A stretch of 64,000 nt of DNA, taken from IMG/VR virus record IMGVR_UViG_3300045988_120820, positions 72,335 through 136,334 of that record. One strand, written 5' to 3'. This DNA is from a virus. The notes under the pieces are model-generated. The model was not told the origin of the DNA, did not search any database, and saw only the letters and a list, made by a program, of their open reading frames with translations. The position numbers and the translations under genes are program-made. This document shows, piece after piece, positions 1,962 to 44,108 of the stretch (its first letter is position 1; every line of letters starts with the position of its first letter).

Positions 1962-3308
1962 TTATTTTAGATTTTTTTCAATCAATGGTATATAAAAAGT
2001 GTTATATCCTAATTCATTTGGATGTGTTCCATCTGAATTATTTGTGTATGTGTTTTTATGTTCTGAAATATATGTATTTAAACCACCACAGTCATATACA
2101 TCTATAATTGGTATAGACCATCTTTTACATAATACTTTGGCTCTTTTACTATAAGTATTCTGTAATTCTGTATCCCTAGAACTCATTTTATGAACACAAA
2201 CATAGAATACTGGCACACCTTTCCAATAAGTTTTTAATCTATAACAAATTTCTTCAAAAGCACCAGAAAATGTATTTGTATTTTTTGTTTGGCTATATCC
2301 ATCAGATATTTCACCTAAATCTTTCACAGCGCCATTATTAATATCATTTGTAAATCCATCAAATAATATATAATCTGCTGTTTTTTTATCATTTTTTGCT
2401 TTTTCAATTTGAGTTAATATATCGTTTGTAGAAGTTGTTATTGTAGCACCACCCACAGCATAATCATAACAAATCATATCATTCTTCTTAGCTAATAATT
2501 CGGCATATCCAATACCGTTATTGCCATCTCCAGCACCTATGCTATCACCAAAATTTAAAATAGTCTTACCTTTTAATATGTTATTTAATAAATATATTTC
2601 ATTTTTTACTTCTTCTTTTAAGCTTTCATTTAATTTTAATTTATCTATTATTATTTTATTTTCTTCGTATTCCATTTTTTCATCACCAAAATATAACATT
2701 GAATTATCCGCAAGATTCTTTTCAAAAGAGACTCTGATATATGCTACTTCTTTATTTCCATTATAAGTTATTGACTCTTTTGTAAAATTTGTATTATCAT
2801 AATAATAATCTGTTAATACATTATAAGAATTATCATAAAAACACGCAGTTCTTATAGCTCTTCTTGTCATATTTGTATTCTGTGTTGGGTTATCCATCCT
2901 AGATAGGTTTATTTTATCACCTTTGCTAAACGGTATATATGTAGTCGTTACATAATTTCCATTTTTTATTTCCCCATTAGAATATACATATCCACCAACT
3001 AATTCATCAATATTTAATATATTATTTCCATATTTGGCAAAATTAGTTTTGTATGGAGTTACTTGTTCATCTACTATATTTTCACTTAATATAGTATTTT
3101 TTCCCACTACTGCTACACTTCCACCAGTTATTGCCTCTTTTATATCTTGCCCCATATTAGCCATAGTGAATACCTCATTTTTATCAGCTTTATTATTTAA
3201 ATTTTCTCTTAATGTCTTACTATCTTTACACAATACATTGTCATCAGTAGACCAAAATGAAATGACATTTCCATTCTCATCACCATATTTATTCTTCATA
3301 TACTTCAT
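1962..3308 (-). CDS. tail-fibre-like protein with C-terminal SGNH/GDSL hydrolase domain
   Basis: ILNFGDSIGAGDG (block I GDS) and DGTHPNELGY (block V DxxH). The N-terminus FWSTDDNVLCKDSKTLRENL recurs in other fibre-like ORFs here. Confidence 0.75.
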   Translation of the reverse strand: MKYMKNKYGDENGNVISFWSTDDNVLCKDSKTLRENLNNKADKNEVFTMANMGQDIKEAITGGSVAVVGKNTILSENIVDEQVTPYKTNFAKYGNNILNIDELVGGYVYSNGEIKNGNYVTTTYIPFSKGDKINLSRMDNPTQNTNMTRRAIRTACFYDNSYNVLTDYYYDNTNFTKESITYNGNKEVAYIRVSFEKNLADNSMLYFGDEKMEYEENKIIIDKLKLNESLKEEVKNEIYLLNNILKGKTILNFGDSIGAGDGNNGIGYAELLAKKNDMICYDYAVGGATITTSTNDILTQIEKAKNDKKTADYILFDGFTNDINNGAVKDLGEISDGYSQTKNTNTFSGAFEEICYRLKTYWKGVPVFYVCVHKMSSRDTELQNTYSKRAKVLCKRWSIPIIDVYDCGGLNTYISEHKNTYTNNSDGTHPNELGYNTFYIPLIEKNLK

Positions 3309-3322
3309 TGCTTCATACCTCC

Positions 3323-4564
3323 CTAATTTATATAACTCTCTTCAGAAGAAATTTTATTAAAAGGAATTTTTGTAATAGTTCCTGTTACCCCTCCTGATGT
3401 GTCTTCCTTAACTATTGGTACATTTTCATCATGTATTAAAGTATCTCCATACCAAATTTCATTTAAATAACTTAATTTTATTTGACATAATACATCTTTT
3501 TTTAATATCGGTTGCGTTCTCCATGATATACTCGGAAATATTAAAATTAAGTTATCCACTGTTGGTCTAATAAATAAATTCAATTCCATAAATTCATCCA
3601 CATCTGGTAATACGATAGTCGATAATGTTTCTGTTTTTAAATATTGATATTTATCTCCGGTTAAATTTAATTTATCTTCATCATCGGCGATAACTACATT
3701 TAAATAATCTACTATTTGTTCTTTTTTATTTTTTATTTTATTAAATTTATATAGTTTGAAATAATCTTCATTAAAACAACATAAACCGTATGTATAAGTA
3801 TCTGTATTACTTGTTATATATGCATAATTTCTATTACCATCTAAATATATTATTTCAGTACTAGAATTAAAATCTTTTGCCCAACCTTTTAATATATAAG
3901 AACTTTTACTTAATTCTGATATTATTATAGGTGTATCTTCTGTACCTTTTTTAATTGTATAGCCTTTACTTTCTTCTAATTCTATTAATTTTGTCTTATG
4001 CTGTAATATCTCATCTTTAATTTCGCTAGTTGCTTGTTCTAATTTGTTCAATTTAGAATCGGTAATTACATCTCCAGATATCCAAATAGTTCTATTATAA
4101 GACCCGTCGTCATTGAAAGTTTTTAATTCTTTTCCATATTTAGCAACTTTTGTGTTGTCTATTGCTGTTCCATCAACTGTTCCATAAGATAAATCGTCAT
4201 CGTCCACTTCACATTCTTCAACTGACATTATAAAATAAGGTAATTTTATTCTTCCACCTTTATCGTCATAAATTCTAATATGAACATGATAATTTCCTAT
4301 TTCATCAATTTGATTCATTATTTCATTATTAATTGTAAATAATATTTTATTATCTATAATAGGTACTATATCTGATTTTATTTGTTTTTTTAAAGGACTA
4401 ACTAATACTATATCAGATAATAAATAATTAGAACTTAAATCTAAATAATCAGTATCCATCAATTTGAAATATATATCTATACCTTTATCGTGTTGAAATA
4501 TTGATAGCTGACGATTTAAAATACTCTTTTGTTTATTAATAATTATCGAATATTCTTTTTTCAT
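3323..4564 (-). CDS. BppU-like baseplate upper / receptor-binding scaffold protein
   Basis: N-terminal ~120 aa pattern (LSIFQHDKGIDIYFKL...GNYHVHIRIYDDKGGRIKLPYFIMSVEE) resembles the BppU N-domain. Paralogous N-terminus in 25972..27141. Confidence 0.55.
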   Translation of the reverse strand: MKKEYSIIINKQKSILNRQLSIFQHDKGIDIYFKLMDTDYLDLSSNYLLSDIVLVSPLKKQIKSDIVPIIDNKILFTINNEIMNQIDEIGNYHVHIRIYDDKGGRIKLPYFIMSVEECEVDDDDLSYGTVDGTAIDNTKVAKYGKELKTFNDDGSYNRTIWISGDVITDSKLNKLEQATSEIKDEILQHKTKLIELEESKGYTIKKGTEDTPIIISELSKSSYILKGWAKDFNSSTEIIYLDGNRNYAYITSNTDTYTYGLCCFNEDYFKLYKFNKIKNKKEQIVDYLNVVIADDEDKLNLTGDKYQYLKTETLSTIVLPDVDEFMELNLFIRPTVDNLILIFPSISWRTQPILKKDVLCQIKLSYLNEIWYGDTLIHDENVPIVKEDTSGGVTGTITKIPFNKISSEESYIN

Positions 4565-4578
4565 CTATTTGCTCCTTT

Positions 4579-6105
4579 CTAAACATTTGTATTATTTTCA
4601 AGAGCATCTAATCTTGATTCTATGTTAGATAATCTTGAATTTATATTTCCTATTTTAGAATTTAAATCATTGACTTGATTTTGAACTTCTAAGATTTTAT
4701 CATTTAATCTTTTTTCAATTTGTTGTAAATTAACTTCACTCGTTGCTGAATTAATTAAGTTTATACAGTTTAACATTTGTGAGTTCAATTTATTTCTAGC
4801 TTCCCTATATAATGCTAATCTTATAGTGAATCTTTTTCTTTCATCTTTATTAAAAATTAAATCTTTCATATCTACTTTTATTGAATTAATAAAATCTGTG
4901 TGTTTTGCTTTAAAATCATCAAAATATTCTTTTAATAATTGTTTATTATTATCGCCTAACTTCTCATTATTATAGTAAGATTGATAACTAGCTTCTATTT
5001 TAGAAACGTAATTAACCATTCCATTTGCTAAAGCGTCCAACGAATTATATTGTGCTACCGTTAATTTCCCATCCACGTTTAACAATGAATTAATTATAGG
5101 TAACATGTCATTTGAGTACTTTTGATTTGCATCAAAATATCCTTGAATAGTTTGTTGTTCTTTAGCGAAAGAATTAATCAATGAAGCTTGTAATTCACTC
5201 ATATTACTAGATAAATCATCTATTCTAGCATTTGTATTATAAACTTCATCTGATATAGTACTTGAAGCCCCTAATGTTTTTTCGCCTTCTGAACCTATAG
5301 ACAATATTGTACTACATGAATCTTTAAAAGAAGATAATGTTATCAATATCGTAGTTATATTAGATGTTATGGAAGAAATATCTGCTAATGTTATATTTTC
5401 TCTATCATCCTCTGTGACGATTTTAATTTCTACAATTAAATCAGCCAGCATTTTTTGCAAAGATAGTTGATATTCTAAAAAAGATGTTGTGTCTACATCA
5501 TTAGAATTTTCTGCCATCATATCAATTAAAGCATCACTATATCCTAGCATTTCTTCAAATTTATTATTGATTGTATCTAACCTATAATTGACATCTGCTT
5601 TTTCTGCTGAATTAAATGTCTCATCGGAAAGTCTATCGGTTAATGTGGTTTTTAAATCTATCATTAAAGAATTGGAATTTATTATTGCTGTATTTAATAA
5701 TTCTTTAATTTGTTCAAATGATAAGTTTTCTTGATATTCTTTTGATAAACTTTCTATATTATCTTGAGTGATTTCAAGTTGTTTTTTATAAAATTTATTG
5801 TTTTCAGTGACTCCTTTTAATTTCTCTGCTATCGACTTTTTATTATATCCATCAAATAACATTTCCAATGTATCTGTTGTAGTTGTAACACTAACACCCT
5901 CTATATTTTTAATTATAAATATCAAGTCTTCTTTGTCATCTAATTTATTATTTGAACTTACTAAATCAGAAGTTTCTATCTTCCAATAGATATACTTGTC
6001 TTTTGTATATATATTATTTATAGGAAATATTTGTTCATTATATTTAATGGATAAATCCTTTATGTAAATGTATCCTTGAGTTGGTGCGTTATTAATTATT
6101 GCCAT
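4579..6105 (-). CDS. coiled-coil tail fibre/structural protein
   Basis: Long heptad-rich sequence in the tail module. The likely start is the ATG at 6105, 8 nt after AGGAGG (the track's GVG start at 6114 abuts the SD). Confidence 0.45.
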   Translation of the reverse strand: MAIINNAPTQGYIYIKDLSIKYNEQIFPINNIYTKDKYIYWKIETSDLVSSNNKLDDKEDLIFIIKNIEGVSVTTTTDTLEMLFDGYNKKSIAEKLKGVTENNKFYKKQLEITQDNIESLSKEYQENLSFEQIKELLNTAIINSNSLMIDLKTTLTDRLSDETFNSAEKADVNYRLDTINNKFEEMLGYSDALIDMMAENSNDVDTTSFLEYQLSLQKMLADLIVEIKIVTEDDRENITLADISSITSNITTILITLSSFKDSCSTILSIGSEGEKTLGASSTISDEVYNTNARIDDLSSNMSELQASLINSFAKEQQTIQGYFDANQKYSNDMLPIINSLLNVDGKLTVAQYNSLDALANGMVNYVSKIEASYQSYYNNEKLGDNNKQLLKEYFDDFKAKHTDFINSIKVDMKDLIFNKDERKRFTIRLALYREARNKLNSQMLNCINLINSATSEVNLQQIEKRLNDKILEVQNQVNDLNSKIGNINSRLSNIESRLDALENNTNV

Positions 6106-12231: not shown

Positions 12232-15200
12232 CTATAATGATTTATTAACAATATCTTTTAAAGTTTTATTAATCATTTCTTGCATGTCATCAAGAACATT
12301 TTCATCAACACTTCCTTCAACATTAATATTGATATCACCCACATTTAATGTTTTAGAAGTTGTATCTTTATTCATACCTTCTTTATAATTTACATTTCCT
12401 AATTGTTTGAATCCAAGTTCTTTAAATATATCTTTATAGTCTTTTAAATAATCCAAAGCTACTTCAAGATTATCACACAATTCTGTTTTAATTGAATCAC
12501 CTAATATTCCTACTGCGTCTCCACTTGTTTCTGCAAAGTCAATCAATTTATCTTGTAAATTGGTAATATTACCATTTAAATCAGTAAAAGTATTAGTCAT
12601 CATCGCATCTTTAACCATTTGTGCTATTTTTTGTGGAGTATAAGTGTCATCTATATTTTGTGTCATATCTTCTTTCTTTTTATCTAAAGCGTCTAATTGT
12701 TCTTGGAACATATTATCGATGTCTTCATCAACCTTATTTTGAACTGTTTCATCTAATTTATCTTGAGCTTCTTTTAAATCGTCTAATAATTCTTTCAACT
12801 TAGATTTACCACTCATAGAATTATCTCGTTTTGCTAATTCTATTTTTTTATTAATAGTGTCAATTTCGTCTTGTTGTTCTTTTAAATTTTTTGCATAATC
12901 ATCTTCATCACGTTGTTTTTTATAATCATCTCTTCTTTTTTCTATTAATTCTTTTTCTTTGTCATATTGTTTTTCTATAGCGTCTTTACGTTTATCTATT
13001 TCATCTTTTATTACATCTGTGATTTTATCTTCTATGTCTTTCACTTTATTAAGTTTATCTTTTTGTAAATCTACTATGTTTTTTTGTAAATCAGCATAAT
13101 TTTTTTCTGCGTCAGCTAAATCGTCATTTATTAAAGAAGTATATTCTTCTAATAAATCATTAACCTTTTCCAAATCTTCACTGTTTTGAAAACTGTTTAA
13201 TACTTCGTCTATATTGCTTACATTTCCTTCTACATCAAATGTGAAACCATATTTAGATAAACTTTCTTGATATGTAGGAATCTTATTTTTCATATTAGTC
13301 ATTAAATCCATTTGTTTAGATAGTTGTTCATTCATAAGTTTTAATTTTTCTTCTGTCAATTTAATTGTATCTACTCCATTTGAATTTTCTAGTTTAACAT
13401 CTATTATATCAATTTTATTTCCTAGTATATCGAATTGATTTTTTAATTGAGTTATGGCGTTGCTAAATTTATACAATTTATCTTCTCTAGTTAGTTTTTC
13501 AATTTCGTCATTATTTTCTTTAATTGTATTTTTCATTTCTTGCCATTGTTCTTCACAACTAAATATATCACTTTGTTGTATATCATAATATTTATTAGCT
13601 AAGTTTGTAAGTTTATCCAATTCTTCTTTATATTTACTAGCTTTATCGCTTGCTGTATTATTTGAAGAACCACTAGAAGAGCTACTTTTAGAAGATTTAT
13701 CGGCTACATCTTGAAGTCGTTTATATTCTTTTTGCATAGCCAATAATTTTTCTTCATAGTTAGTCATATTCCCATCTTCATTAAATTTGAATCCTTCTTT
13801 TTGAAGTTTTTGTTGAAGTGTTTCTCTTTCAGAAATTAAATCGTCATAATATTCTTTTTGAAGTTTAGCCTGTTCTTCTAATAATTTATTTTTTTGTTTA
13901 AGATATTTAATTTTTTCAGTACCTACTGCTTTTTCCATTTGTTTATCTAATAATGAAGTTTTCTTAGTTACTGTTTCAATTCTATATTGCAACTCTTTAA
14001 ATAATTCAACAGAGTACTCAATCATATCTAATACATTTTGATATTCAAGGCTTATAGGAGTTAAAGCTGTTTCTATATCACCTATACTATTAAAATCTCT
14101 CGTAGCATAAGTACTTATTCCACCAGAACTATCTGAAGTAGAATTTGTTGTGCTTATATCATTTGCAGTTACTACAGGTTGTGAAGTCACCATTGGTGTA
14201 GCACTCAATTGCTCTACAGAATAAGGATTATCTTCTATATTAGAAAATTCACCTATAGAATCTCCCCACATTACTGATTTTCCCTTTCCACTATGAGGAA
14301 CTTTTGATTTACCTTTTTCTGTATAGCTTAACGTAGCCATTATTGATATACTTCGTGGTATTTCGTTTATTTTTTGTTTTAAACTATCTAATTTATTTGA
14401 TATATCGGCACTATTACTAATTATTTTAATATATTTCTCTGGAATTTTTAATCCTTGAAGTGCATAAAGTTGCTGTAATGCTTGAAAAGCCATTACGGTA
14501 ACATCTACAACTTTATTTTTTAATTGTATAGCATCTACAGTTCCAAGTTCATCTAATGCATTAGATAATGCTACTCCAACTTCAATTTGTTTTTCTGCTG
14601 GTAGTTGCCCTATTAAGTCCATTACGGTTGCTATGTCACCTTGAGCTAAAGCTTTATCTATTTTTACTTTTATGTCTTTTTCATCTTTTTCATTTAATAG
14701 ACTATCTATTTCAGCCTTAGCAGTTTTTATTGTATCTTCACCTAAAACATTTATATGACAACTTGTTACTGCTTCTGGATGGTCAAATACCCATTGAATC
14801 ATGTCTTCATAAGATTTCAATTCAGATAAATCTTGAATGTTATTTTTAAAAAATGTTTCAATGTTTTTATCTTTACCTCTTAAATTATCCATTAATTTGG
14901 CATAATTTTCAACTTGGTCGGTATTTTCTATATTCGCTCTTAAAGTTTTTACTATTTCATCTTTTCCGTCAAATTGTTTAAAACTCGCAAAAGCGTCATC
15001 TATTTTCTTTTTATCGTCATCAGATACAGCATATTCTCCTGTAACAAACAGTTTACCTACATCTATTTTACCTTTTCCAAATTGTTTATCTACAAGATTT
15101 TGAACGTCTTGAATTAAATTATTTCTAGTTTCTTCATCATCTTCTACATAAATTTGAGATAATTTAGCTGTTAATTCCATATCGTCTAAAGAAAATTCAT

Positions 15201-16194
15201 TGTCGTCCATCAATCGATTAACCAAATCTTTTACTTTGTCTGGTAAATTACTATCTTCTAAAGTGGCTTTAACTTCTTTGATGTTGTAAACCATTTTTCC
15301 GTCTTTTTCTACTGTATCAAGACCACTTAAATCTTGAAGAAAATTATTGTAAGCGTCCCATGTTGCCATTAAATCTTTAGTTTCTTTATCTGTCATGTTT
15401 ATGTTTTTACCAAAAGAACGTAAATAAGCATCCATAGCATTTTGAGCCATTTTAGCACTTTCTGGTAACTCTACCATACTTCTAGCTACATCTTCATTTA
15501 CTCCCCATAATTTGGCTAAAGAAGGGATTAATTTTTCAATTCCTTGTTCATAAGCAGTAATGTCACTTGTGTCTGCGTATGCTTGTTGTAAATCATACAA
15601 TTTTCTTATTGATTTATCTATTGTTCCAGAATCAAACATTTTTTTCATATTCGATTCAAATAAACTTTGTTGTCCACTTGTTAATTGAGAAAAATCTAAT
15701 CCATTTACAACTTCTATCATTTCAGATTGAACGTCACTTTTTAATTTACTGAAACCATCACCTATAGACAAAGAGTTTACTATACTTTTATTAATTTTTT
15801 GAGATTCGGCACTTATTTTTGCTTCAGCATCTACAACTGCCTCTTTAGCACTAGCATACGTATCACTTAATTTAGCAAGCCTTTCTGAATAATCTTCTAG
15901 CCATGCTGAATCACCTGTTTGAACAAATGTGTTATTAAGTTCATCTTTCTTTTTTCTGATGTTTTCTATTTGTCTATTATATTCCTTAATTGCTTGTTTA
16001 TTGAAAGCCCCATCTTTACCAGCAAATCCTTGTCCTTCATTCATTTTGTCTGTAGCATTTCTTTGTTGGTCTTTATATTCTTGATTCAGAGCCTCTTGTT
16101 GTTTCTTGATTAATTTATCATATTTTGCAATTAATTTATCAATATCTCCACCCATCGATAAAATCGGGTTATTATCTTTATCATACAATATCTT
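12232..16194 (-). CDS. tape measure exon 5
   Basis: ORF 12232..16197 has only a TTG 'start' inside intron-like sequence and no SD. Coiled-coil rich. Frame joins ...EDIVLG|KILYDKDNNP. Confidence 0.8.
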   Translation of the reverse strand, partial: KILYDKDNNPILSMGGDIDKLIAKYDKLIKKQQEALNQEYKDQQRNATDKMNEGQGFAGKDGAFNKQAIKEYNRQIENIRKKKDELNNTFVQTGDSAWLEDYSERLAKLSDTYASAKEAVVDAEAKISAESQKINKSIVNSLSIGDGFSKLKSDVQSEMIEVVNGLDFSQLTSGQQSLFESNMKKMFDSGTIDKSIRKLYDLQQAYADTSDITAYEQGIEKLIPSLAKLWGVNEDVARSMVELPESAKMAQNAMDAYLRSFGKNINMTDKETKDLMATWDAYNNFLQDLSGLDTVEKDGKMVYNIKEVKATLEDSNLPDKVKDLVNRLMDDNEFSLDDMELTAKLSQIYVEDDEETRNNLIQDVQNLVDKQFGKGKIDVGKLFVTGEYAVSDDDKKKIDDAFASFKQFDGKDEIVKTLRANIENTDQVENYAKLMDNLRGKDKNIETFFKNNIQDLSELKSYEDMIQWVFDHPEAVTSCHINVLGEDTIKTAKAEIDSLLNEKDEKDIKVKIDKALAQGDIATVMDLIGQLPAEKQIEVGVALSNALDELGTVDAIQLKNKVVDVTVMAFQALQQLYALQGLKIPEKYIKIISNSADISNKLDSLKQKINEIPRSISIMATLSYTEKGKSKVPHSGKGKSVMWGDSIGEFSNIEDNPYSVEQLSATPMVTSQPVVTANDISTTNSTSDSSGGISTYATRDFNSIGDIETALTPISLEYQNVLDMIEYSVELFKELQYRIETVTKKTSLLDKQMEKAVGTEKIKYLKQKNKLLEEQAKLQKEYYDDLISERETLQQKLQKEGFKFNEDGNMTNYEEKLLAMQKEYKRLQDVADKSSKSSSSSGSSNNTASDKASKYKEELDKLTNLANKYYDIQQSDIFSCEEQWQEMKNTIKENNDEIEKLTREDKLYKFSNAITQLKNQFDILGNKIDIIDVKLENSNGVDTIKLTEEKLKLMNEQLSKQMDLMTNMKNKIPTYQESLSKYGFTFDVEGNVSNIDEVLNSFQNSEDLEKVNDLLEEYTSLINDDLADAEKNYADLQKNIVDLQKDKLNKVKDIEDKITDVIKDEIDKRKDAIEKQYDKEKELIEKRRDDYKKQRDEDDYAKNLKEQQDEIDTINKKIELAKRDNSMSGKSKLKELLDDLKEAQDKLDETVQNKVDEDIDNMFQEQLDALDKKKEDMTQNIDDTYTPQKIAQMVKDAMMTNTFTDLNGNITNLQDKLIDFAETSGDAVGILGDSIKTELCDNLEVALDYLKDYKDIFKELGFKQLGNVNYKEGMNKDTTSKTLNVGDININVEGSVDENVLDDMQEMINKTLKDIVNKSL

Positions 16195-19100
16195 CAATTA
16201 GGTTCGCTACTTCCTAATCAGTTCTCTTATGAACTTCTCTATGTTTCCATAGAAGTTGAGACTATATCTTTACCTTTATTAAAGGCACATACCACTTCCA
16301 CTCGCTTGAGTGTACGAGCATTTGCTCTAGTCGTTGAAGTTTACTTTTATTAATTGCTTAAATTATATTTTTTTGAAAATTCAATACTATTTTTTAATCT
16401 ATTAGGTTTATATTTCATATCAAATTTATAATAAAATTCTTTTGGTATATATTTTAAATAAGGTCTGACTACATCAAAAAATTTTCTAAAATTTGTAGCG
16501 TTAAAATACAATCTATAATATGTTCTATTCTTATATCCTTTGATTCCAGATTTATCAGTATGTATTTTTAAATCTATATCAAACCTTCTCTTAAACATGT
16601 CTTTAATTCTTACATTATCTTTATAACTGAAGCCTTGAGTATTTAGATACCCAAATCTTTTAGCATAATTATTTTTAAACGAAACATGCCAGTTTCCATC
16701 ATCTAAAAACCAAAGTAATAAACCAAAAGAATTTATATTGTTTAAAACTGTGTCTGATAAATATTTTTTACCATTTAATAATGTATTCTTTTTAAATTCT
16801 TCTTTATTAGGAATTTTTATTCTAACATTAGAATAAATATAAATACCAAATGTTGTATTTTTTTCATAATCATATTTAGAATGAGTGTCTATTCCTAAAG
16901 AACTAAACGTATATTCTAACCATTCAACATAAAATCTTTGTTTATTGGTATGGACACAACGAATATACTCTCCATTGATATCACCATCCCCTAACATCAA
17001 TCCATATAAACTATTTATTATTTCTTTCTCATTTTTAATCATGTGAATACTCACTCCTTTTTTTATTTTCGCAATTAACTTAAAGTCTTACCTGCTGATT
17101 GCCCAATCCTTAAACTTTTTAAAACCATCACGCTCATCATTACTGATTACGTTGTGGTATTAAGGCTCTAAGGGGTTTCCAGCAATTCAATATGTTTTCT
17201 AATAATAATTTCTTATTATAGGGGCTATTTATTAACCCAAGACAATATCTTCACCACAAATATCAATTATTTGTTGTTGTAACTCTTTAAATCTTTCTTG
17301 TTGTGCAGAAGTTTTATCTACTGTATCGTATAATTTTTTATATTCATCTCTAATATTGGATAAATTTGTTTTTGCTTTTGTTGAGCTAGTTACTTTATTA
17401 TTTAAATTGGTTATATTTTCTGCATTTTTTTCTAAAGCGTCATTAAGTTTATTAGCCTCGTCTGTAAAATGTTGAATAACTTTACCTATTCCCCATGATA
17501 CGAGCATACCTATACCCATATTTATAACGCCCATAGCTAAATTCATAGCTCCTAAAGCTACTTTTGTTCCTAATGCTTTAGCCTCTACACCTGCTAAAGC
17601 ACTTCTAACTGCTGTTAATCCAGAGGCAAATACTCCAGATGATTGACGAGCCTCTTTAAATGAAGTACCTATCCCTTTTATTACATTCCAAGATTTTCCA
17701 AGATAACTAGCTTGAAATCCTTCTTTTATTGTTGCAAAGAATCCTGGATTAGCAGTCCCAACCATCGTAGCACTAGATGCTTGTCGTGTTGCAGTGGCTT
17801 GTCCTTCTAGTGCAGTAGTTGTACTCAAAGCTTCGGCTTTTAATCTTCTTTCTTGATTAATTAATGCTTCAAATCCACCACTTTGATTAAATTTTATTGA
17901 TTCAAAAATACCAGAAATTGCCCCTGCTATTACGGGTAATCCTACACCCATGTCATCTATATACTTAACAAATTTATCTAACATGTCTAAAGCACTTATA
18001 CCAATGTCTAAAAATCCTTTTGCCGTATTTCCACTTACAGCTGTATTGACTATACTTCTCCATTTTTCTTGGAGTAATGTAAGTTTCCCTTGCACGGAGT
18101 CTATATATCTTGCATTCGTTATCTTCACATAAATTCGCTACATTTACGCAGTTCTCTTATGAACTTCCTATACTTTCATATAGAGTCGAGACTATTTCTT
18201 CACCTTCAGCATTATCTGTTAAGGGCAAAGTATTTCCACTATCAATAGCTTATAGTGTACGGTTTCACAACCTAGTCGTTGAAAGTTTAATCTAATTTAT
18301 TAATTATTTTTTAAATCTTTTAAATGATTTTTAATTATATTAGATTAATACTTGCATGAACACCCATTGTTTAAGATTACTTAGGATTTAACCATATAAT
18401 CATCCTTACGTTTTTTCTACTTTCGTACCTTCACGTTTATTGTTACCAATTACGTTGTGGTGTAAGGCTTTAGGGATTACCTGCTTTTAACTTTGTGTCC
18501 TACGCACATTTCTGTACGTACGGAGAATGTTGTTTCTCTTTCATTGAACTTCCGAAAGTGTCGCCATTTTCGTACTCTTTCATAAATTTTTCTGCTTGAC
18601 TCCAGTTACTCATTATTGCTGTGAAAACGTTCAGTTGGTTTTTCGGTTTGTTATCGTAAAGGCTTTTTATCCTCTACTTCTTATAGTTTCCTATAAGCCC
18701 AGCATACATTTTCACCCTCGTTTAACGTTAGGTATTGATGGTTGCAAACCCATCTCAAGTATTACTATATAATACTGTGGAGGAGGCTCGTGATAGGATT
18801 ATTGCTAACAATATCGCTCACCTATTATGCGTTACGGATGTTCTCTGTTAAGACACCCTCGGTATTACCATATCCGTTAAGGACTTAGGCTCTCTTACCA
18901 CCTTAATCTTTCGATTTAGTTGACCGATACACCCCTCTAATCTACATGATATTTCTACCATGAGTGGCATAATATTTAATTAATAGTTTATATTTTTTAA
19001 ATTTTCTTTCTAAATATATATTTGAATTTTTATAAATATAATCACAAAAAGTTAATACATCTTCTTTTTTATTAGTTACTAATCTAAAGATATCATTGGA

Positions 19101-22100
19101 TTTACAATTCGTTTTGTAAATTCTCCCCAATGGAATATTTGTATTCAAACATATACCTTCTAGGATATTTTTAGTTCCTAATATTTCTATACTTTGATGT
19201 TTTTCAGTACAAACAATACAACCATCTCCATCTAAATACCCTCTTATAAAATGAGGTGTTAATTCTTTAGGAACTTGTTCTTCTGTTGGAAAAGTTAATG
19301 TCAATGATTTTCTAGGAGTACATCCTAATTTAATTAAATCTTGCTTCATTTTTTTATTTTTAAAAGATACTCTACATCTAAAATCATCTACAATTAATTT
19401 TCCCTCAAACCCTATAAAATCTTTGAATTTTTGAAGATGCTCTTTATCTGATAATTGTAAAGAAAGTTCTATATCATTTCTTTTACCACTTGAAATACTT
19501 CCATCGGCATATAAAAATCCTAACCAATAAGCTTTTTCTTCAGAGTCTATTTTCTCAAATATATCATCGTTTATCTTCTTTTTATGTGGCATAATATTAA
19601 CTTTTATACCTTGGTTTTTTAAATAAGAAGAAAATCTACTTCTTGAAATTTTTAATTCTTTACTGATTCTAGCTGTAGATACTCCTTCTAAATACATTTT
19701 TAAACCCAAATTATATTTTTCTAAAGTTTCCTCCATCATAATATTCACCCCCTTTTTATTCTTTCCTTTATTAATTATTTTTAAACCTTTTAAACTATTA
19801 ATTTATATACCTGCAATCGCTTCAGCTACAGAAGATTTACTTTTTTTATCTAATTTATCCCACATTCCTGCTATATCGCCCATGATGTCATAGAAATCTC
19901 TAACTTGGCCATTTGAATCGTGCATATCAATTCCAGTTATTTTTTCTATGGCCATTGCTGTTTTATTCATTGAAATACTCGAATTGTTATTAACGTTAAG
20001 TTTTTTATCTTAACCTCTGGAAGTTTCCTTCATTTTCATCGATTGGTCATTTCCAATCCAGTCTGGCGTACATATTCCATCTCATATAAGACAGTCGGAG
20101 ACTCTTGGAGGAATTATATTCTATTTAAATAGTTTCATCCTCTACGCTCTACATTATTGAATAAGTTTTAATTTATTCAATTAACTCGGTATTAACTTAT
20201 CTTTATTAATTATTTTTAAGACTTAGTCTTTCTTACCATATGTATTACTACATATATGACCGAATTTCCCCGAACCGGCAATATTATTTACCGTCTTTAG
20301 CACTTGTTTTCCAACCTGCCATATTTTGCATGATTGTTTTTAAACCATTACCTAATTTACTTGCATTTTGTAATGGTTCTTGCCCTGCAATTATAATAGC
20401 AACCAACTCTTGCATACTAACACCTAATGTTTTCGCAACAGAAGATGAACGCATCATTGCTTCAGATACGTCTTTACCTGTAACAGCATAGTTGTTGTTT
20501 GCATAGTTGACCATATCCATCATTTGCATCATTTTGGTAGTTTCTTTGGTGTTACCTTTGACTTTCATTGTGACTTTATCTAATGAGTTTGCAACACCAC
20601 CATAAGATGCTAATGTTGATTTCAAGTATTTATCTGCATCTGCTTGGCTTGTATCTATAACGTTGGCAAACATAGATGCATTTTTAGCATATTGTAAAGC
20701 TTTACTAACATTATGGAAACCAGATTGTAATGCCTCGGCAGTGGAATCAATTATATCAATACTACTTCTGGCAACCTCTTGACCTGCCTCACTTGCTTTT
20801 TGAGTTAACCAATCTAATTGCTTGGCTGTTCCTGTAAAGGTGTCTGGTGCAACTTTTAATAATTTTTTAATAGCCGTATCTGTATCAATAATAGTACTAG
20901 GAATTGAAGATATACCTTGAGTGATAAGTCTACCAATCATATTTGGTATTGAATACATTGATAACATAGAGGCTAAATTACTGAAAAATCCAGACGTTTT
21001 CTTGGTTGCATTTCCTAATATATTCATTGCTTGAGTTGCACTTCTAGCACCATTAGCAACTCCGTTTATACCATTTCCGTTAATATTAGATAGACTACTA
21101 GAAAAAGTACTTACGTCTTTAGTCAGTGCTTTTAACTCTGCGTCTCTATCTTTTAAATTACTTATACTAGCTATAGTTTGTAGTCTTTGTTTAAATTCTT
21201 CTACCTTAGATGATGAAGCTCCTAATTCTTGACATCTTCTTGTTAAGTTTGTTAAATCTTGAGATACTTTATTAAAATCTGCATCAAATTTTACATTAGC
21301 TCTTTTAGTAGAAATTTCACTTTCAAATTGTTTATATTTATTTTCACATTGTGCTATTTTATCTTTTAAACCATCAAATTCAGCTTTAGCACCTTCTGTA
21401 TTAGGGTCTATATTTCGTAATTTTGATTGATATTGTTCTATTTGAGTTATTAGTTCTTGTATTCCAGATGTATTAGCAAATTTACTCGTTCCTAATTCAG
21501 CAAGTTTAGCTTTAAGAGATTCTAACTTAGCAACAGATGTATTTATCTTATCGGTGAATGTAATTGAACCATTCAATCCTTTTAATGACACCGACACATT
21601 ACTAATCTCTGCATTTAAATTATGTATTTGTTCATATGCCTTGTCAGATTTTAATATTTGACTTAAATCAGCACCTTTAACATTATTGATTTTATTTTGA
21701 AGTTCTTGAAGTTGTCCCATCTGTGAACTTGTTAAGTTTTTATTTTTGAACATATTATTAATTTGTTCAGAGGTATTATTAGCCTTTTGTTGAATTTTAT
21801 CAAATGAACTTATTAAATCTCTACTTATATCTATATTAGATTTATTTTTTAAGTTGTCCATTTTTTGTGCAGTAGATTGCATCTCACTGTTAATTTTTGA
21901 TAACTTAGATTCTAACTCGTTATAAGCTTGAGTATTTATAGTTTTAGACATTTGTTTTTGAAGTGATTCTGATTGTTTTTGTAAAACTTTATATTTAGCT
22001 ATAGTATTATCTAATTCTTTATTACCTGTAGAAGTCTTAGTAGAACCACTGCCAAATAAATTTTTTTGCACGTCTTTACTTAAAGAATTTATTTCTTTTA

Positions 22101-22320
22101 AAGTGTTTTGTATTTGTTTAAGATTGTTTAATTGGTCATCTTTAAGTTTAAAGGCATTGTTTAGTACTTTTTGAAGTTCTTCCATTTGAGCTTTCATTTT
22201 AGTAGTATCAAATTTTAGATTAACTTCTTTTTTCTCTAGCTTTTCCTTCAACTTAGCAACTTCTTGCTCTGCACCACTTCCATCTACAGAAGTTTTTAAC
22301 CTAATAGTTAAATCTGCCAT
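12232..22320 (-). CDS. tape measure protein, split gene (5 exons, ~2390 aa after removal of 4 intervening sequences)
   Basis: The TP901-type TMP core continues across ORF fragments and two hand-translated mini-exons. The downstream fragments lack an SD/ATG. The intervening segments are structured and GC-enriched. Confidence 0.85.
16195..17234 (-). mobile_element. group I-like intron D (family alpha) carrying a LAGLIDADG ORF
   Basis: An in-frame TAA follows GGT at the proposed 5' splice site. GCCC 9 nt inside can pair with exon GGGU (P1-like). GACTA...TAGTC (P7-like) pairing. GAAA-capped hairpin at 16232..16257. The 3' end ...CCTAATTG is aligned with intron C. Confidence 0.85.
16350..17042 (-). 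CDS. LAGLIDADG homing endonuclease (double motif), intron-encoded
   Basis: LYGLMLGDGDI and LLLWFLDDGNW motifs. ATG at 17042 follows AAGGAG. Confidence 0.9.
   Translation of the reverse strand: MIKNEKEIINSLYGLMLGDGDINGEYIRCVHTNKQRFYVEWLEYTFSSLGIDTHSKYDYEKNTTFGIYIYSNVRIKIPNKEEFKKNTLLNGKKYLSDTVLNNINSFGLLLWFLDDGNWHVSFKNNYAKRFGYLNTQGFSYKDNVRIKDMFKRRFDIDLKIHTDKSGIKGYKNRTYYRLYFNATNFRKFFDVVRPYLKYIPKEFYYKFDMKYKPNRLKNSIEFSKKYNLSN
17235..18125 (-). CDS. tape measure exon 4
   Basis: KITNARYIDSVQGKLTLLQEKW... matches the conserved ...Y.DS.QGK... segment of TP901-type TMPs. Followed by a Gly/Ala-rich hydrophobic stretch. Confidence 0.8.
18126..18533 (-). mobile_element. group I-like intron C (family alpha), ORF-less; 5' boundary uncertain (18534-18558)
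   Basis: Alignable along its length with the capsid-gene intron (35037..35415) and with the halves of intron D. GAAA hairpin at 18162..18188. Contains the junction motif at 18297..18307, where intron D carries its ORF. Confidence 0.75.
18534..18653 (-). CDS. tape measure mini-exon 3 (hand-translated)
   Basis: KNQLNVFTAIMSNWSQAEKFMKEYENGDTFGSS... continues ...AEAIAG from exon 2. This is the typical AIAGK.Q.NV..A.MSN TMP core. Confidence 0.7.
18654..19808 (-). mobile_element. group I-like intron B (family beta) carrying an HTH-LAGLIDADG ORF
   Basis: The 3' ~290 nt is alignable with the terL intron, including GATAAAAAGCC...GATAACAAAYCG at the 3' end. Hairpin with GAAA loop at 18690..18707. Confidence 0.8.
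18942..19739 (-). CDS. LAGLIDADG homing endonuclease with N-terminal HTH, intron-encoded
   Basis: WLGFLYADGSI and RGYLDGDGCI motifs. N-terminal TARISKELKISRSRFSSYLK is HTH-like. ATG at 19739 follows GGGGGTG. Confidence 0.9.
   Translation of the reverse strand: MMEETLEKYNLGLKMYLEGVSTARISKELKISRSRFSSYLKNQGIKVNIMPHKKKINDDIFEKIDSEEKAYWLGFLYADGSISSGKRNDIELSLQLSDKEHLQKFKDFIGFEGKLIVDDFRCRVSFKNKKMKQDLIKLGCTPRKSLTLTFPTEEQVPKELTPHFIRGYLDGDGCIVCTEKHQSIEILGTKNILEGICLNTNIPLGRIYKTNCKSNDIFRLVTNKKEDVLTFCDYIYKNSNIYLERKFKKYKLLIKYYATHGRNIM
19809..19975 (-). CDS. tape measure mini-exon 2 (hand-translated; 5' end approximate)
   Basis: ...NKTAMAIEKITGIDMHDSNGQVRDFYDIMGDIAGMWDKLDKKSKSSVAEAIAG matches the TP901 core region. 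Confidence 0.7.
19976..20289 (-). mobile_element. putative ORF-less intron A in the tape measure gene (family unclear)
   Basis: Separates two in-order TMP core pieces. GCCG 10 nt inside can pair with exon end GACGGU. Contains AGAGTCTC and the junction motif (20203..20213). Structure less clear than in the others. Confidence 0.55.
20290..22320 (-). CDS. tape measure exon 1
   Basis: ATG at 22320 with SD. MADLTIRLK... coiled coil, then ...LGNGLKTIMQNMAG... typical of the TMP core. Confidence 0.85.
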
Positions 22321-42007: not shown

Positions 42008-44108
42008 TTAATTAGCTAAGAAAATATGTCTTTTTCTCTTGTTTCTATTTTTCTTTCTTATATCTTTTTCTATTAATTCAGCTAAATAATTACCATAAGT
42101 AATAGAAGAATATCTATCTTTACGATTTCTTCCTTTTTCTTTAAGAACTATATCACCATTTCCCATAGTTTCATAATCTAAGTTTATTGATTCAAATATA
42201 AAATTAGATGTTTGAATAAATGGTGCTATTTTATTAGCATGGTATTCAGCGTCTTGATGATATTTTAAGTCTTTACTAAAGTCTCCTCTTTTTTCATTTT
42301 CTTCTATTAATAATCTTATTTTTTTACTACCAAAAGCATTTTTAAGATATACTGCACAATCATTATTTATTTTTTGATTCCCTTTAATTACATATATACA
42401 ATTTATACCATTTTTTAAAGGTTGAAAATCTTTTGATTGTGTACTCATATCATAAATGCCAAAAGGTTCGTAATGTTCATCAATATTTTCGTCATAAGAT
42501 GATTTTTCCATCTCTTGTATTACTGCTATACCTAAACCACCACCATCTATAATGATTTTATCAGCTTTAAATTCTGTATATAATCTCTTAATTCTAGTGG
42601 CTTGTTTTTCAAATTTCATACCATTATGTGATTCCATATAAACAACTTCTCTAATAATATTATTTCCACTAGGAAGTAATCTCCATAAAGTAAAAATAGA
42701 GTTATCATTTTTATTTGATTTGTTAGCTTTTGCTGTGGCTACATCGACCGAAATTATTCTTATTTCGTCTTTCTTTTTAGGCATTTGTCTTAATTTCTTT
42801 TTCTTCTCTTCCGGATTTCTATAGTCGTCATCTGTTAATGGATAATAACAATTCTTTAAAACTCTAGCATTTAACATATCAGATGTATTAAAGAAGCAAT
42901 CACCACTTTGTCCATGCCATATAGCACCATATTCCATATTAAATACAAATTCGCCCATGTCCTCTTTATCTTCTTCAATCTTATCTTTTAATACAAGTTT
43001 ATGGTCTAAAGAAGCTAAATAAGGAATAGCACATGCAAATGATTTTCCACCCTCAAACATTCTATTTAGTATAGTCATAAACTTTTCATAACTCCAATGA
43101 ACTTTCATCCATGCAGAACTTAGATATATCTCCATATTAGCTTCTAATGGATAATCTGCATATTCGGGTTTTTCTAAAAATGGAGGTTTTCTTGGATTTG
43201 TTAAGAATTGTTTTAAAACTGAATTTATTATATCTAATTTGATAAGCCTAAATTCGTCTGCAACCAATACGTTACCTCTCAACGATTTGTTATCCTATAG
43301 GCTTTTTATCCCATAGTTCTTACATTTTACCATCATGTAAGTCCAGCATACATTTTCACCTTCAGCATTATCTGTTAAGGGGAGGAGGCTCGTGAGAAAA
43401 TTATTGCTCTCATATTATCGCTCATTTCTTATGCGTTACAAACAGTATTAGATATTACTGCTCTCGGTATTGTCCCTTGTGAATTGGAGGATTCTCTTTT
43501 AATTTTATACAAATTCAAAATGAAGATTTCCTGTGCTTTTTCTTCTCTTAATATAAAATTATTATTCATTTTATGAACCGATACACCCCTCTAATTATCT
43601 AAAAAATTTCTCTTTTAGACGGCTATACTTTTTAACCTCTCGCTCCATCATTAGAAGCTATAGCTGTTATTACAGAACCATTTTTAAAAATACATTTAAC
43701 ATTATCCTTATTATTTTGAACTTTTTTAATTTCTTTTGCTAACGCAGGGTAATCCCTGCGTAAATCTTCAATCTTTTCGGTTATAATTAATCCTGCTTGG
43801 TCTTTATTACCAGATGCAACTACTATCTTTGAACCCGGATATAATATTGCTCTACAACATACAAATATCGCGGTTATAAAACTTTTTCCCAAACCCCTCG
43901 ATGCAATCCAGCACACACTTGTACATATATTCATCATGTAAAGCAATACTTGTTGAAACCAATACAAATTAATTCCTAACCAATCCATACAAAATCTATG
44001 TGGATTTTTTCTAAAATATTCAGTCCATATTTTTACACCATCTAATAAGTTTTCATATGAATCCTTTTTTAAGTTTTTTCTTTGTTTACATTTTAATTTA
44101 TTTTCCAT
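42008..44108 (-). CDS. terL: terminase large subunit, split gene (exon 1 43635..44108, exon 2 42008..43282)
   Basis: Exon 1 has Walker A SRGLGKSF and ends ...SNDGARG*. Exon 2 starts (L)RGNVLVADEF (Walker B region) with no SD and continues into the nuclease half. The likely start is the ATG at 44108 (MENKLKC). Confidence 0.8.
43283..43634 (-). mobile_element. group I-like intron (family beta), ORF-less, in terL
   Basis: An in-frame TAA follows GGT. GCCGUCU 11 nt inside can pair with exon AGAGGU. Long alignable blocks with TMP intron B. Confidence 0.75.

Follow-up and report, generated by a model that had tools for sequence, protein, structure and literature searches.

A probable group I intron interrupts the gene for the large terminase in an SPβ-like phage of Clostridia

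In a 64,000-nucleotide (nt) stretch of viral DNA (IMG/VR record IMGVR_UViG_3300045988_120820, positions 72,335 to 136,334; the whole stretch is called the window below), the gene for the large terminase subunit, TerL, is split into two open reading frames (ORFs) on the minus strand, 44108..43635 and 43282..42008. We are highly confident that the insert between them is a group I intron with the boundaries given in Table 1. It has defined ends, belongs to a family of related phage introns and shares with them a covarying core, and the site that it occupies is filled in some relatives and empty in others.

The two exons are clearly parts of a single gene. Exon 1 starts with ATG at 44108 and runs for 158 amino acids (aa). 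As described in the initial annotation, it carries the Walker A motif and ends in IASNDGARG, directly followed by TAA (43634-43632); its terminal codon is GGT (43637-43635). The ORF of exon 2, also as described there, opens with TTG and continues with LRGNVLVADEF and the nuclease half of the protein. In Pfam, exon 1 matches Terminase_6N (positions 4-86 of 215) and exon 2 matches Terminase_6C, the nuclease domain. The TerL_ATPase model scores 20.7 bits, below cutoff, before the exons are joined and 27.2 bits after, and with the exons joined both Pfam ATPase models cross residues 158^159 (here and below, ^ marks a point of insertion or junction). A search with the joined protein returned 1046 TerL homologues, the top three (P0001-P0003) being 96%, 88% and 78% identical, and the intact top homologues are 582 aa long, exactly the sum of exon 1 (158 aa) and exon 2 (424 aa).

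An alignment to intact homologues, which the initial annotation had proposed as a check, fixes the junction. In an alignment of 37 sequences all intact homologues pass through it without a gap (G-[AS]-R-[GS]-x-R-x-[NH]...DE), and the closest of them read GARG-[L/M]-RGNVLVADEF. Both RG dipeptides are therefore genuine (GARG-L-RGN), and since the homologues require both, the boundaries are GGU^intron...AUCG^UUG. The intronless alleles L004 and L002 (relatives are referred to by locus numbers of this form) differ from the window at the DNA level by a single gap of exactly 352 nt, the length that had been given for the insert. Their junctions are GGG^ATG and GGC^TTG, against GGT^...^TTG in the window, and U as the last exon base is found only in the interrupted allele. 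Such agreement of homologues and intronless alleles goes far beyond chance. Within the conserved GARG^LRGN block, the insertion separates the G codon from the L codon. The claim that the split falls inside the ATPase domain holds, but the site is not within Walker B itself: it is adjacent, 7 residues upstream of the Asp-Glu pair of Walker B (VLVADE).

The insert starts UAAAAAGUAUAGCCGUCU, its opening bases being UAAAAAGUAUAGCC, and closes GAUAACAAAUCG. The last base is U in the upstream exon and G in the insert (...AAAUCG^UUG), both as expected of a group I intron. A slide by 1 nt (GGUU^...CGU^) yields an identical product, and the choice of register rests on the group I rule; in most family members the G is placed 4 nt past GAUAACAA. 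P1 has a U.G wobble at the 5' splice site and uses GCC at 43623-43621 as its guide, with the pairs G-C, G-C and U.G followed by UA/UA. The same GGU/GCC arrangement is found in L012, L148, L181, L260 and L263 and in two family introns of the tape-measure gene, and family members in ribonucleotide reductase genes have P1 helices of 8 base pairs (bp) with U.G. The initial annotation had extended the pairing between exon and guide by AGA/UCU. The GGU/GCC part stands; the extension we reject as the main pairing and consider probably coincidental, UCU...AGA being the base of P2, which covaries in L012 (UCUAGUU/AACUAGA) and L181 (UUUAAGUUA/UAACUUAAA). The extension is also impossible in L181 and L260.

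To assess the core, 18 diverse compact members of the family were aligned with MAFFT; the helices were read from the window, and P7 was written in a second bracket type, as it crosses P3. Standard pairs fill 92.8% of cells, as against 32-54% when the partners are slid by 1-3 columns, and both sides have changed in 30 of the 45 pairs. The covariation score is 0.486 compared with 0.181 for shuffled alignments, and none of 500 shuffles reaches the observed value. P3, P4, P7 and P7.1 are each 100% paired, the P3/P7 crossing (a pseudoknot) included, with P6 at 90% and P9.1 at 98%. The register of P3 is fixed in 53 members, with GAGGGG/CUCCUC, UUGGGG/CUCCAA, UCGAGG/CCUCGA and CCGGGA/UCCCGG among the variants, and P4 shows one compensatory change, G-C to A-U, in L012. 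P7 occurs as GCAUA/UAUGC, GACUA/UAGUC, GAGUA/UACUC and GCGUA/UACGC, its first pair being G-C in 18 of 18. It is flanked by an R-like J6/7 (UGUAAC) before the 5' strand and an S-like J8/7 (GAAAAUG) before the 3' strand; J8/7 GAAAAUR and J6/7 GUAAC are nearly invariant across the family alignment, and together with the G-C pair of P7 they form the predicted guanosine-binding site.

P7.1 corresponds to an insertion between P7 and P3' in the Rfam alignments of related introns and is followed by a conserved CACGAG (43388-43394). Its 26-nt loop (UGAGCG...AGCAAUAAU) and CACGAG are almost invariant across the family; no pairing partner was found for them, and they may make a tertiary contact or a pseudoknot. 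The P5 segment is 23-29 nt long in compact members and reaches 104-106 nt only in the window and L148. A 46-codon ORF (43429-43569) overlaps this extension. We dismiss it as a gene, as it is not conserved (it is frame-shifted in L148 and absent from L263) and has no match in Pfam; the insert can thus be called ORF-less, as it was initially.

The insert is one member of a sizeable family. A BLAST comparison of the insert with the window picked out a related element inside the split tape-measure gene. The tail of that element, GATAACAAACCG (18644-18655, same strand), is near-identical to the tail of the TerL insert, so the conservation between the two ends that had been pointed out earlier is confirmed. 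In GenBank phages, a collection that lacks the phage itself, megablast matched no more than 91 nt of the intron core, in two Clostridioides phage-plasmids, where the copies interrupt a ribonucleotide reductase gene at its NPC[A]^E active-site motif and carry an HNH ORF. Scans of IMG/VR retrieved 13 loci with the core pattern, at least 120 with a pattern of the 3' hairpin loop and tail, and at least 118 with a P4'-P6-P7-P7.1 pattern. Among the matches listed, 130 of the 135 sites of the 3' hairpin pattern are complementary over a 7-bp stem, whose sequence differs widely from site to site. A scan of the genome collection with GCAATAATNNNNNCACGAGCCTC was set aside: nine of its ten matches were chance occurrences inside coding sequence, and only L019 was real.

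It is through this family, along three independent lines, that the insert is tied to recognized group I introns. In the member L182 the Rfam group I model RF00028 gives a full-length but sub-threshold match (39.2 bits, E 1.4e-6; gathering score 50) that assigns P3, J3/4-P4-P5, J6/7-P7, an inserted hairpin, P3', P8, J8/7-P7' and P9 exactly as our comparative model does, and aligns the flanks to R (UUCAaAGACUA) and S (AAGAUAUAGUC). The same model reaches 55-81 bits in L054, L062, L065, L087 and L089, introns that share the 3' hairpin and the GAUAACAA tail. Its matches there stop just 5' of that hairpin, and each has, between P7 and P3', an insertion with CACGAG at its end, which is also the case in the window. 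A profile built from 68 family 3' halves, none of them from the window, matches the window insert with E 5.6e-38 and the RF00028-positive introns with 1e-8 to 1e-14, in identical register.

Several observations weigh against a group I assignment or limit it. The Rfam group I model misses the window copy at the gathering threshold (whole window), at E<=10 (insert) and at E<=1 (whole window), and what Rfam does return on the window and the insert are chance matches (FTX_2, snoR20a). The exon side of P1 is short, with three pairs only (GGU/GCC), and a second hairpin, P7.2, was not identified between P7 and P3'. P8 and the 106-nt P5 extension lack covariation support; P8 is weakly supported in the covariation test, in a region poorly aligned by MAFFT. 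Single-sequence folding is uninformative (z = -2.0), the minimum-energy fold being unlike the comparative model. A sequence search of PDB with the joined TerL gave no match, so that the split could not be placed in three dimensions. Finally, that the window intron is catalytically active and splices in vivo is predicted from its sequence, which we also count on this side, and we are somewhat less confident of efficient splicing in the cell than of the group I identity.

The history of the site can be followed in 18 close TerL relatives on viral contigs of 125-140 kilobases. The G158^L159 site is empty in 11 of them; it holds an insert of ~1255 nt in L260, L262 and L264 and one of 317 nt in L263. 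The orthologous insert measures 342-345 nt in L148 and 1197 nt in the more distant L181. The long inserts (L260, L262, L264 and L181) encode a LAGLIDADG protein of 277-280 aa in the P1 loop, and those of L263 and L148 are ORF-less. The LAGLIDADG-encoding introns share with the window copy an identical insertion point (G^L/M of GxRG^xRGN), the GGU/GCC P1 and the family core, but have a short P5, whereas the window copy has no such ORF and a 106-nt P5 extension. In L181 and L260 the intron opens GGU^UAAAAAUUU... and the ORF ends ...(U/A)UAAAAAGUAUAGCC, while the window reads GGU^UAAAAAGUAUAGCC; the last ORF codons of the four long introns (AAAAAGUAUAGCC) equal the first bases of the window intron.

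The site is thus polymorphic for presence and absence of the intron, and the window copy has no endonuclease gene. It looks like an endonuclease-deletion derivative, and a non-autonomous one, because same-site relatives encode LAGLIDADG enzymes and it does not. The endonuclease gene was probably removed by a deletion between two UAAAAA-type (UUAAAAA) repeats. The proposal of a homing-type intron without an ORF is therefore well founded: the insert has a covarying group I core and homology to Rfam-positive introns, and in relatives the same site is empty, ORF-less or LAGLIDADG-encoding. Two of the intronless TerL alleles, L259 and L261 (3001-4747), are 1 nt longer (1747 nt) and have two frames overlapping at about residues 65-73; the extra nucleotide could reflect a frameshift, a sequencing error or a programmed shift.

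In characterised group I introns, splicing proceeds by guanosine attack, exchange for omega-G and exon ligation. By homology with these, the terminase pre-mRNA would fold into P1-P9.1, and an external guanosine held at the P7 G-C pair would attack after U43635 of exon 1, which forms the U.G wobble with the guide GCC in P1. Omega-G 43283 would then take over the guanosine site, and the freed exon 1 would attack the 3' splice site to give the ligated ...GGA GCG AGA GGU^UUG AGA GGU AAC.... The expected ligated junction is GGAGCGAGAGGU-UUGAGAGGUAAC, or, in another span, GGAGCGAGAGGU followed by UUGAGAGGUAACG, and the ligated mRNA would encode a 582-aa TerL with GARG-LRGNVLVADEF. Before splicing, the UAA at intron bases 1-3 would halt ribosomes arriving from exon 1. 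The ancestor was presumably a mobile intron with a LAGLIDADG homing endonuclease in its P1 loop, the gene having since been deleted. Without it, the window copy would depend for its spread on either recombination or the enzyme of a co-infecting relative, and by occupying the endonuclease target site it would both destroy and protect it.

An alternative is that the insert is a group I intron by descent whose copy in the window no longer splices, TerL being a pseudogene in a decaying prophage. The loss of the endonuclease gene, the unusual 106-nt AU-rich segment in P5 and the failure of Rfam to detect this copy would all suit an inactive relic. However, the window copy retains all 76 invariant columns of the family alignment (76/76) with every core helix intact, both exons are intact ORFs whose protein is ~96% identical to that of intronless alleles, and the adjacent structural genes are intact. 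Moreover, L148 keeps the ORF-less form with the P5 extension and L263 a shorter one, and the three independent ORF-less copies at this site (window, L148 and L263) differ from one another by compensatory changes in P7.1, P9 and P9.1, which indicates that the ribozyme is still under selection. We consider loss of splicing quite improbable.

It is more improbable still that the two halves are translated separately and assemble as a split terminase with no splicing involved. The open frame of exon 2 does begin at a possible start codon, but we find no Shine-Dalgarno sequence ahead of this TTG, in agreement with the initial annotation, and the TTG encodes the Leu/Met position of intact homologues. 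The cut would fall between Walker A and Walker B of the ATPase fold; no natural two-gene arrangement is reported among the 1046 homologues, and all interrupted relatives have group I-type inserts at the break. Least credible of all is a DNA transposon or miniature inverted-repeat transposable element rather than an RNA-level element, suggested by the 7-nt direct repeat on both flanks of the insert (GAGAGGT...GAGAGGT): the repeat is not a target-site duplication, because intronless alleles already hold both copies, encoding RG-x-RG (L004: GCGAGAGGGATGAGAGGT), and the insert has a covarying ribozyme core and no terminal inverted repeats.

A group I intron in a phage terminase gene is an element of a well-known kind. 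In Bacillus cereus-group prophages, group I introns interrupt the large terminase gene (term-IVS1, term-IVS2) and the tape-measure gene (TMP-IVS1-3) (Tourasse & Kolsto 2008, PMC2504315). These introns lie in frame in the most conserved regions and often start with a stop codon, a feature reported to hold for phage group I introns in general. Apart from P1, a terminase intron there is homologous to a tape-measure intron of the same phage type, and only some copies have an endonuclease gene, in one case within P1 (PMC2504315). Terminases are among the typical targets of phage introns (review PMC3984707). The window intron resembles the B. cereus-group introns in its targets (terminase and tape-measure genes), its in-frame position at a conserved site, its stop-codon start and the patchy occurrence of the endonuclease; its host clade is another one (SPβ-like phages of Clostridia), and the likeness is drawn from the published description. 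The pattern is that of the B. cereus group repeated in a different phage group. The large-terminase gene of Lactobacillus delbrueckii phage LL-H is reportedly also interrupted by a group I intron, said to carry an ORF (work of Mikkonen and Alatossava, 1995).

IA2 introns have two hairpins, P7.1 and P7.2, between P7 and P3'. With the phage IA2 introns (T4 td and nrdB, Staphylococcus phage Twort, SPβ bnrdE) and RF00028, the window intron has in common P1-P9, the P3/P7 pseudoknot, R/S-like elements at P7, an extra hairpin between P7 and P3' (P7.1), the exon-terminal U.G and omega-G, and it shares the 3' hairpin and GAUAACAA tail with RF00028-positive introns. It differs in P7 (GCAUA/UAUGC as against GACUA/UAGUC) and in J3/4-P4 (UGUA-UCGG as against AAU-UGCGGG), and it has one hairpin, P7.1 with its conserved 26-nt loop, where IA2 has P7.1 and P7.2; RF00028 scores it below any reportable threshold. 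P7.1 and P7.2 are class-defining features (PMC3984707). The divergent P4 region, the altered P7, the single P7.1 with its conserved loop and, in the window lineage, the 106-nt AU-rich P5 extension are the features behind a possible subclass. A more far-reaching proposal would be that the window intron represents a distinct phage group I subclass effectively invisible to Rfam, present at the 118 or more IMG/VR loci, in which the P5 extension or a required protein cofactor makes splicing conditional, so that the intron times or gates terminase production in late infection instead of being a neutral passenger. We regard this as unlikely.

What the case adds is modest: a sizeable subfamily that escapes Rfam, a complete allele series at one site and an unusually high intron density in a structural module, with one intron in TerL and four putative ones in the tape-measure gene of the window and up to three in the TerL genes of relatives. 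It leaves the current understanding of group I introns unchanged. In practical terms, gene callers will break this essential packaging gene into two fragments or list it as a truncated terminase, and Rfam will not flag the cause. The 118 or more related IMG/VR loci, in terminase, tape-measure and ribonucleotide reductase genes, are probably under-annotated in the same way, which a dedicated covariance model would fix. Alleles that are empty, endonuclease-encoding and endonuclease-deleted at a single site form a clean natural series in which to follow the life cycle of phage homing introns, and SPβ-like clostridial phages are a good system in which to ask if introns influence competition between co-infecting phages.

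The phage is SPβ-like, since the genes neighbouring TerL carry YonG, YonD, YonB, YomW and YomV domains. Its G+C content is 26.6%, and relatives of its TerL are found in Peptostreptococcus, Peptacetobacter and Clostridioides.

Table 1. Position of the intron, its predicted structural elements, the TerL exons and the tape-measure introns in the window
Feature	Coordinates	Strand	Description and basis
Probable group I intron	43283..43634	-	352 nt, in-frame UAA first, G last (omega-G 43283); 352-nt gap against L004/L002, profile match, covarying core
P1 hairpin	43621..43637	-	Exon GGU (43637-43635) and intron UA (43634-43633) with UAGCC (43625-43621); direct reading
P2 hairpin	43598..43619	-	UCUAAAAGA-GAAA-UUUUUUAGA; covaries with L012, L181
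P3 5' strand	43586..43591	-	GAGGGG, pairs with CUCCUC 43382-43387; six pairs, five covary
P4 5' strand	43578..43581	-	UCGG, pairs with CCGA 43464-43467
J4/5, P5 and AU-rich P5 extension	43468..43577	-	Extension ~106 nt; length comparison across family members
P6 hairpin	43441..43462	-	AGCAGUA...UACUGUU; 6 of 7 pairs covary
P7 5' strand	43430..43434	-	GCAUA, pairs with UAUGC 43346-43350; two pairs covary
P7.1 hairpin	43395..43429	-	AGAAA/UUUCU with conserved loop; all five pairs covary
P8	43359..43380	-	CCUU...AAGG, inner CAG-AUAAUG-CUG; by-eye comparison with L229, L234, L191, L239
P9 hairpin	43319..43341	-	CUUACAU...AUGUAAG; compensatory changes against tape-measure intron B and L148; Rfam P9 in L182
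P9.1 hairpin and tail	43283..43316	-	CUAUGGG-AUAAAAAG-CCUAUAG, tail GAUAACAAAUCG ending in omega-G; 5 of 5 pairs covary
TerL exon 1	43635..44108	-	158 codons, MENKL...SRGLGKS (Walker A)...IASNDGARG, final base U; ORF reading
TerL exon 2	42008..43282	-	424 codons and stop, LRGNVLVADEF (Walker B)... nuclease domain; ORF reading, collinear with homologues
Putative tape-measure intron	~19980-20289	-	ORF-less; TerL-intron family (profile E 5.6e-14); exon GGU, guide GCC
Putative tape-measure intron B	18644-19802	-	TerL-intron family; LAGLIDADG ORF 18942-19748 in P1 loop
Putative tape-measure intron	~18113-18535	-	Canonical UUCAACGACUA / GAAGAAAUAGUCUC elements
Putative tape-measure intron	16198-17231	-	Canonical AAUUGCUGGAAA, UUCAACGACUA, AAGAUAUAGUCUC elements; LAGLIDADG_2 ORF 16350-17054

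The tape-measure gene (12232-22320, minus strand) appears to be split by the four putative group I introns listed in Table 1, none of which is reported by Rfam on the window. Three TerL introns each are seen in L148 (~8-2971) and L181 (2699-6988). Recurrent sites in TerL are inside Walker A (after residue 74, ASRGLG^KS), at G158^L159, the site used in the window, after W210 and after about residue 276. The W210 site is also occupied in L012, L263, L267, L268 and L271, and L181 uses the site at about residue 276, where it has a 261-aa ORF (5127-5912) of unknown type.

Other members of the family are found in other genes. Judged by eye, those in L182, L193, L203, L227, L235, L236, L098, L103 and L016 appear to split another type of terminase exactly between Asp and Glu of Walker B (...LILD^EYHQH); P1 of the introns at this site has 6 bp, CUCGAU/GUCGAG. 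The ribonucleotide reductase gene is cut at NPC[A]^EEPLP by family members in L001 (Clostridioides phage pCD1602_4, ~2917-3582), L019, L196, L222 and L165, some of which encode an HNH endonuclease in the P5 region (L001 3098-3517; Pfam HNH_3). In L150, L155, L164, L175, L178, L210, L215 and L253 an ORF begins in P8 straight after CA[CA]GAGUACGG, and its N-terminus (...IYKATNLINNKIYIGQT...) is, by eye, GIY-YIG endonuclease-like. With LAGLIDADG ORFs in P1, HNH ORFs in P5 and these GIY-YIG-like ORFs in P8, endonuclease genes of three enzyme families thus appear to sit in at least three loops of the same intron family.

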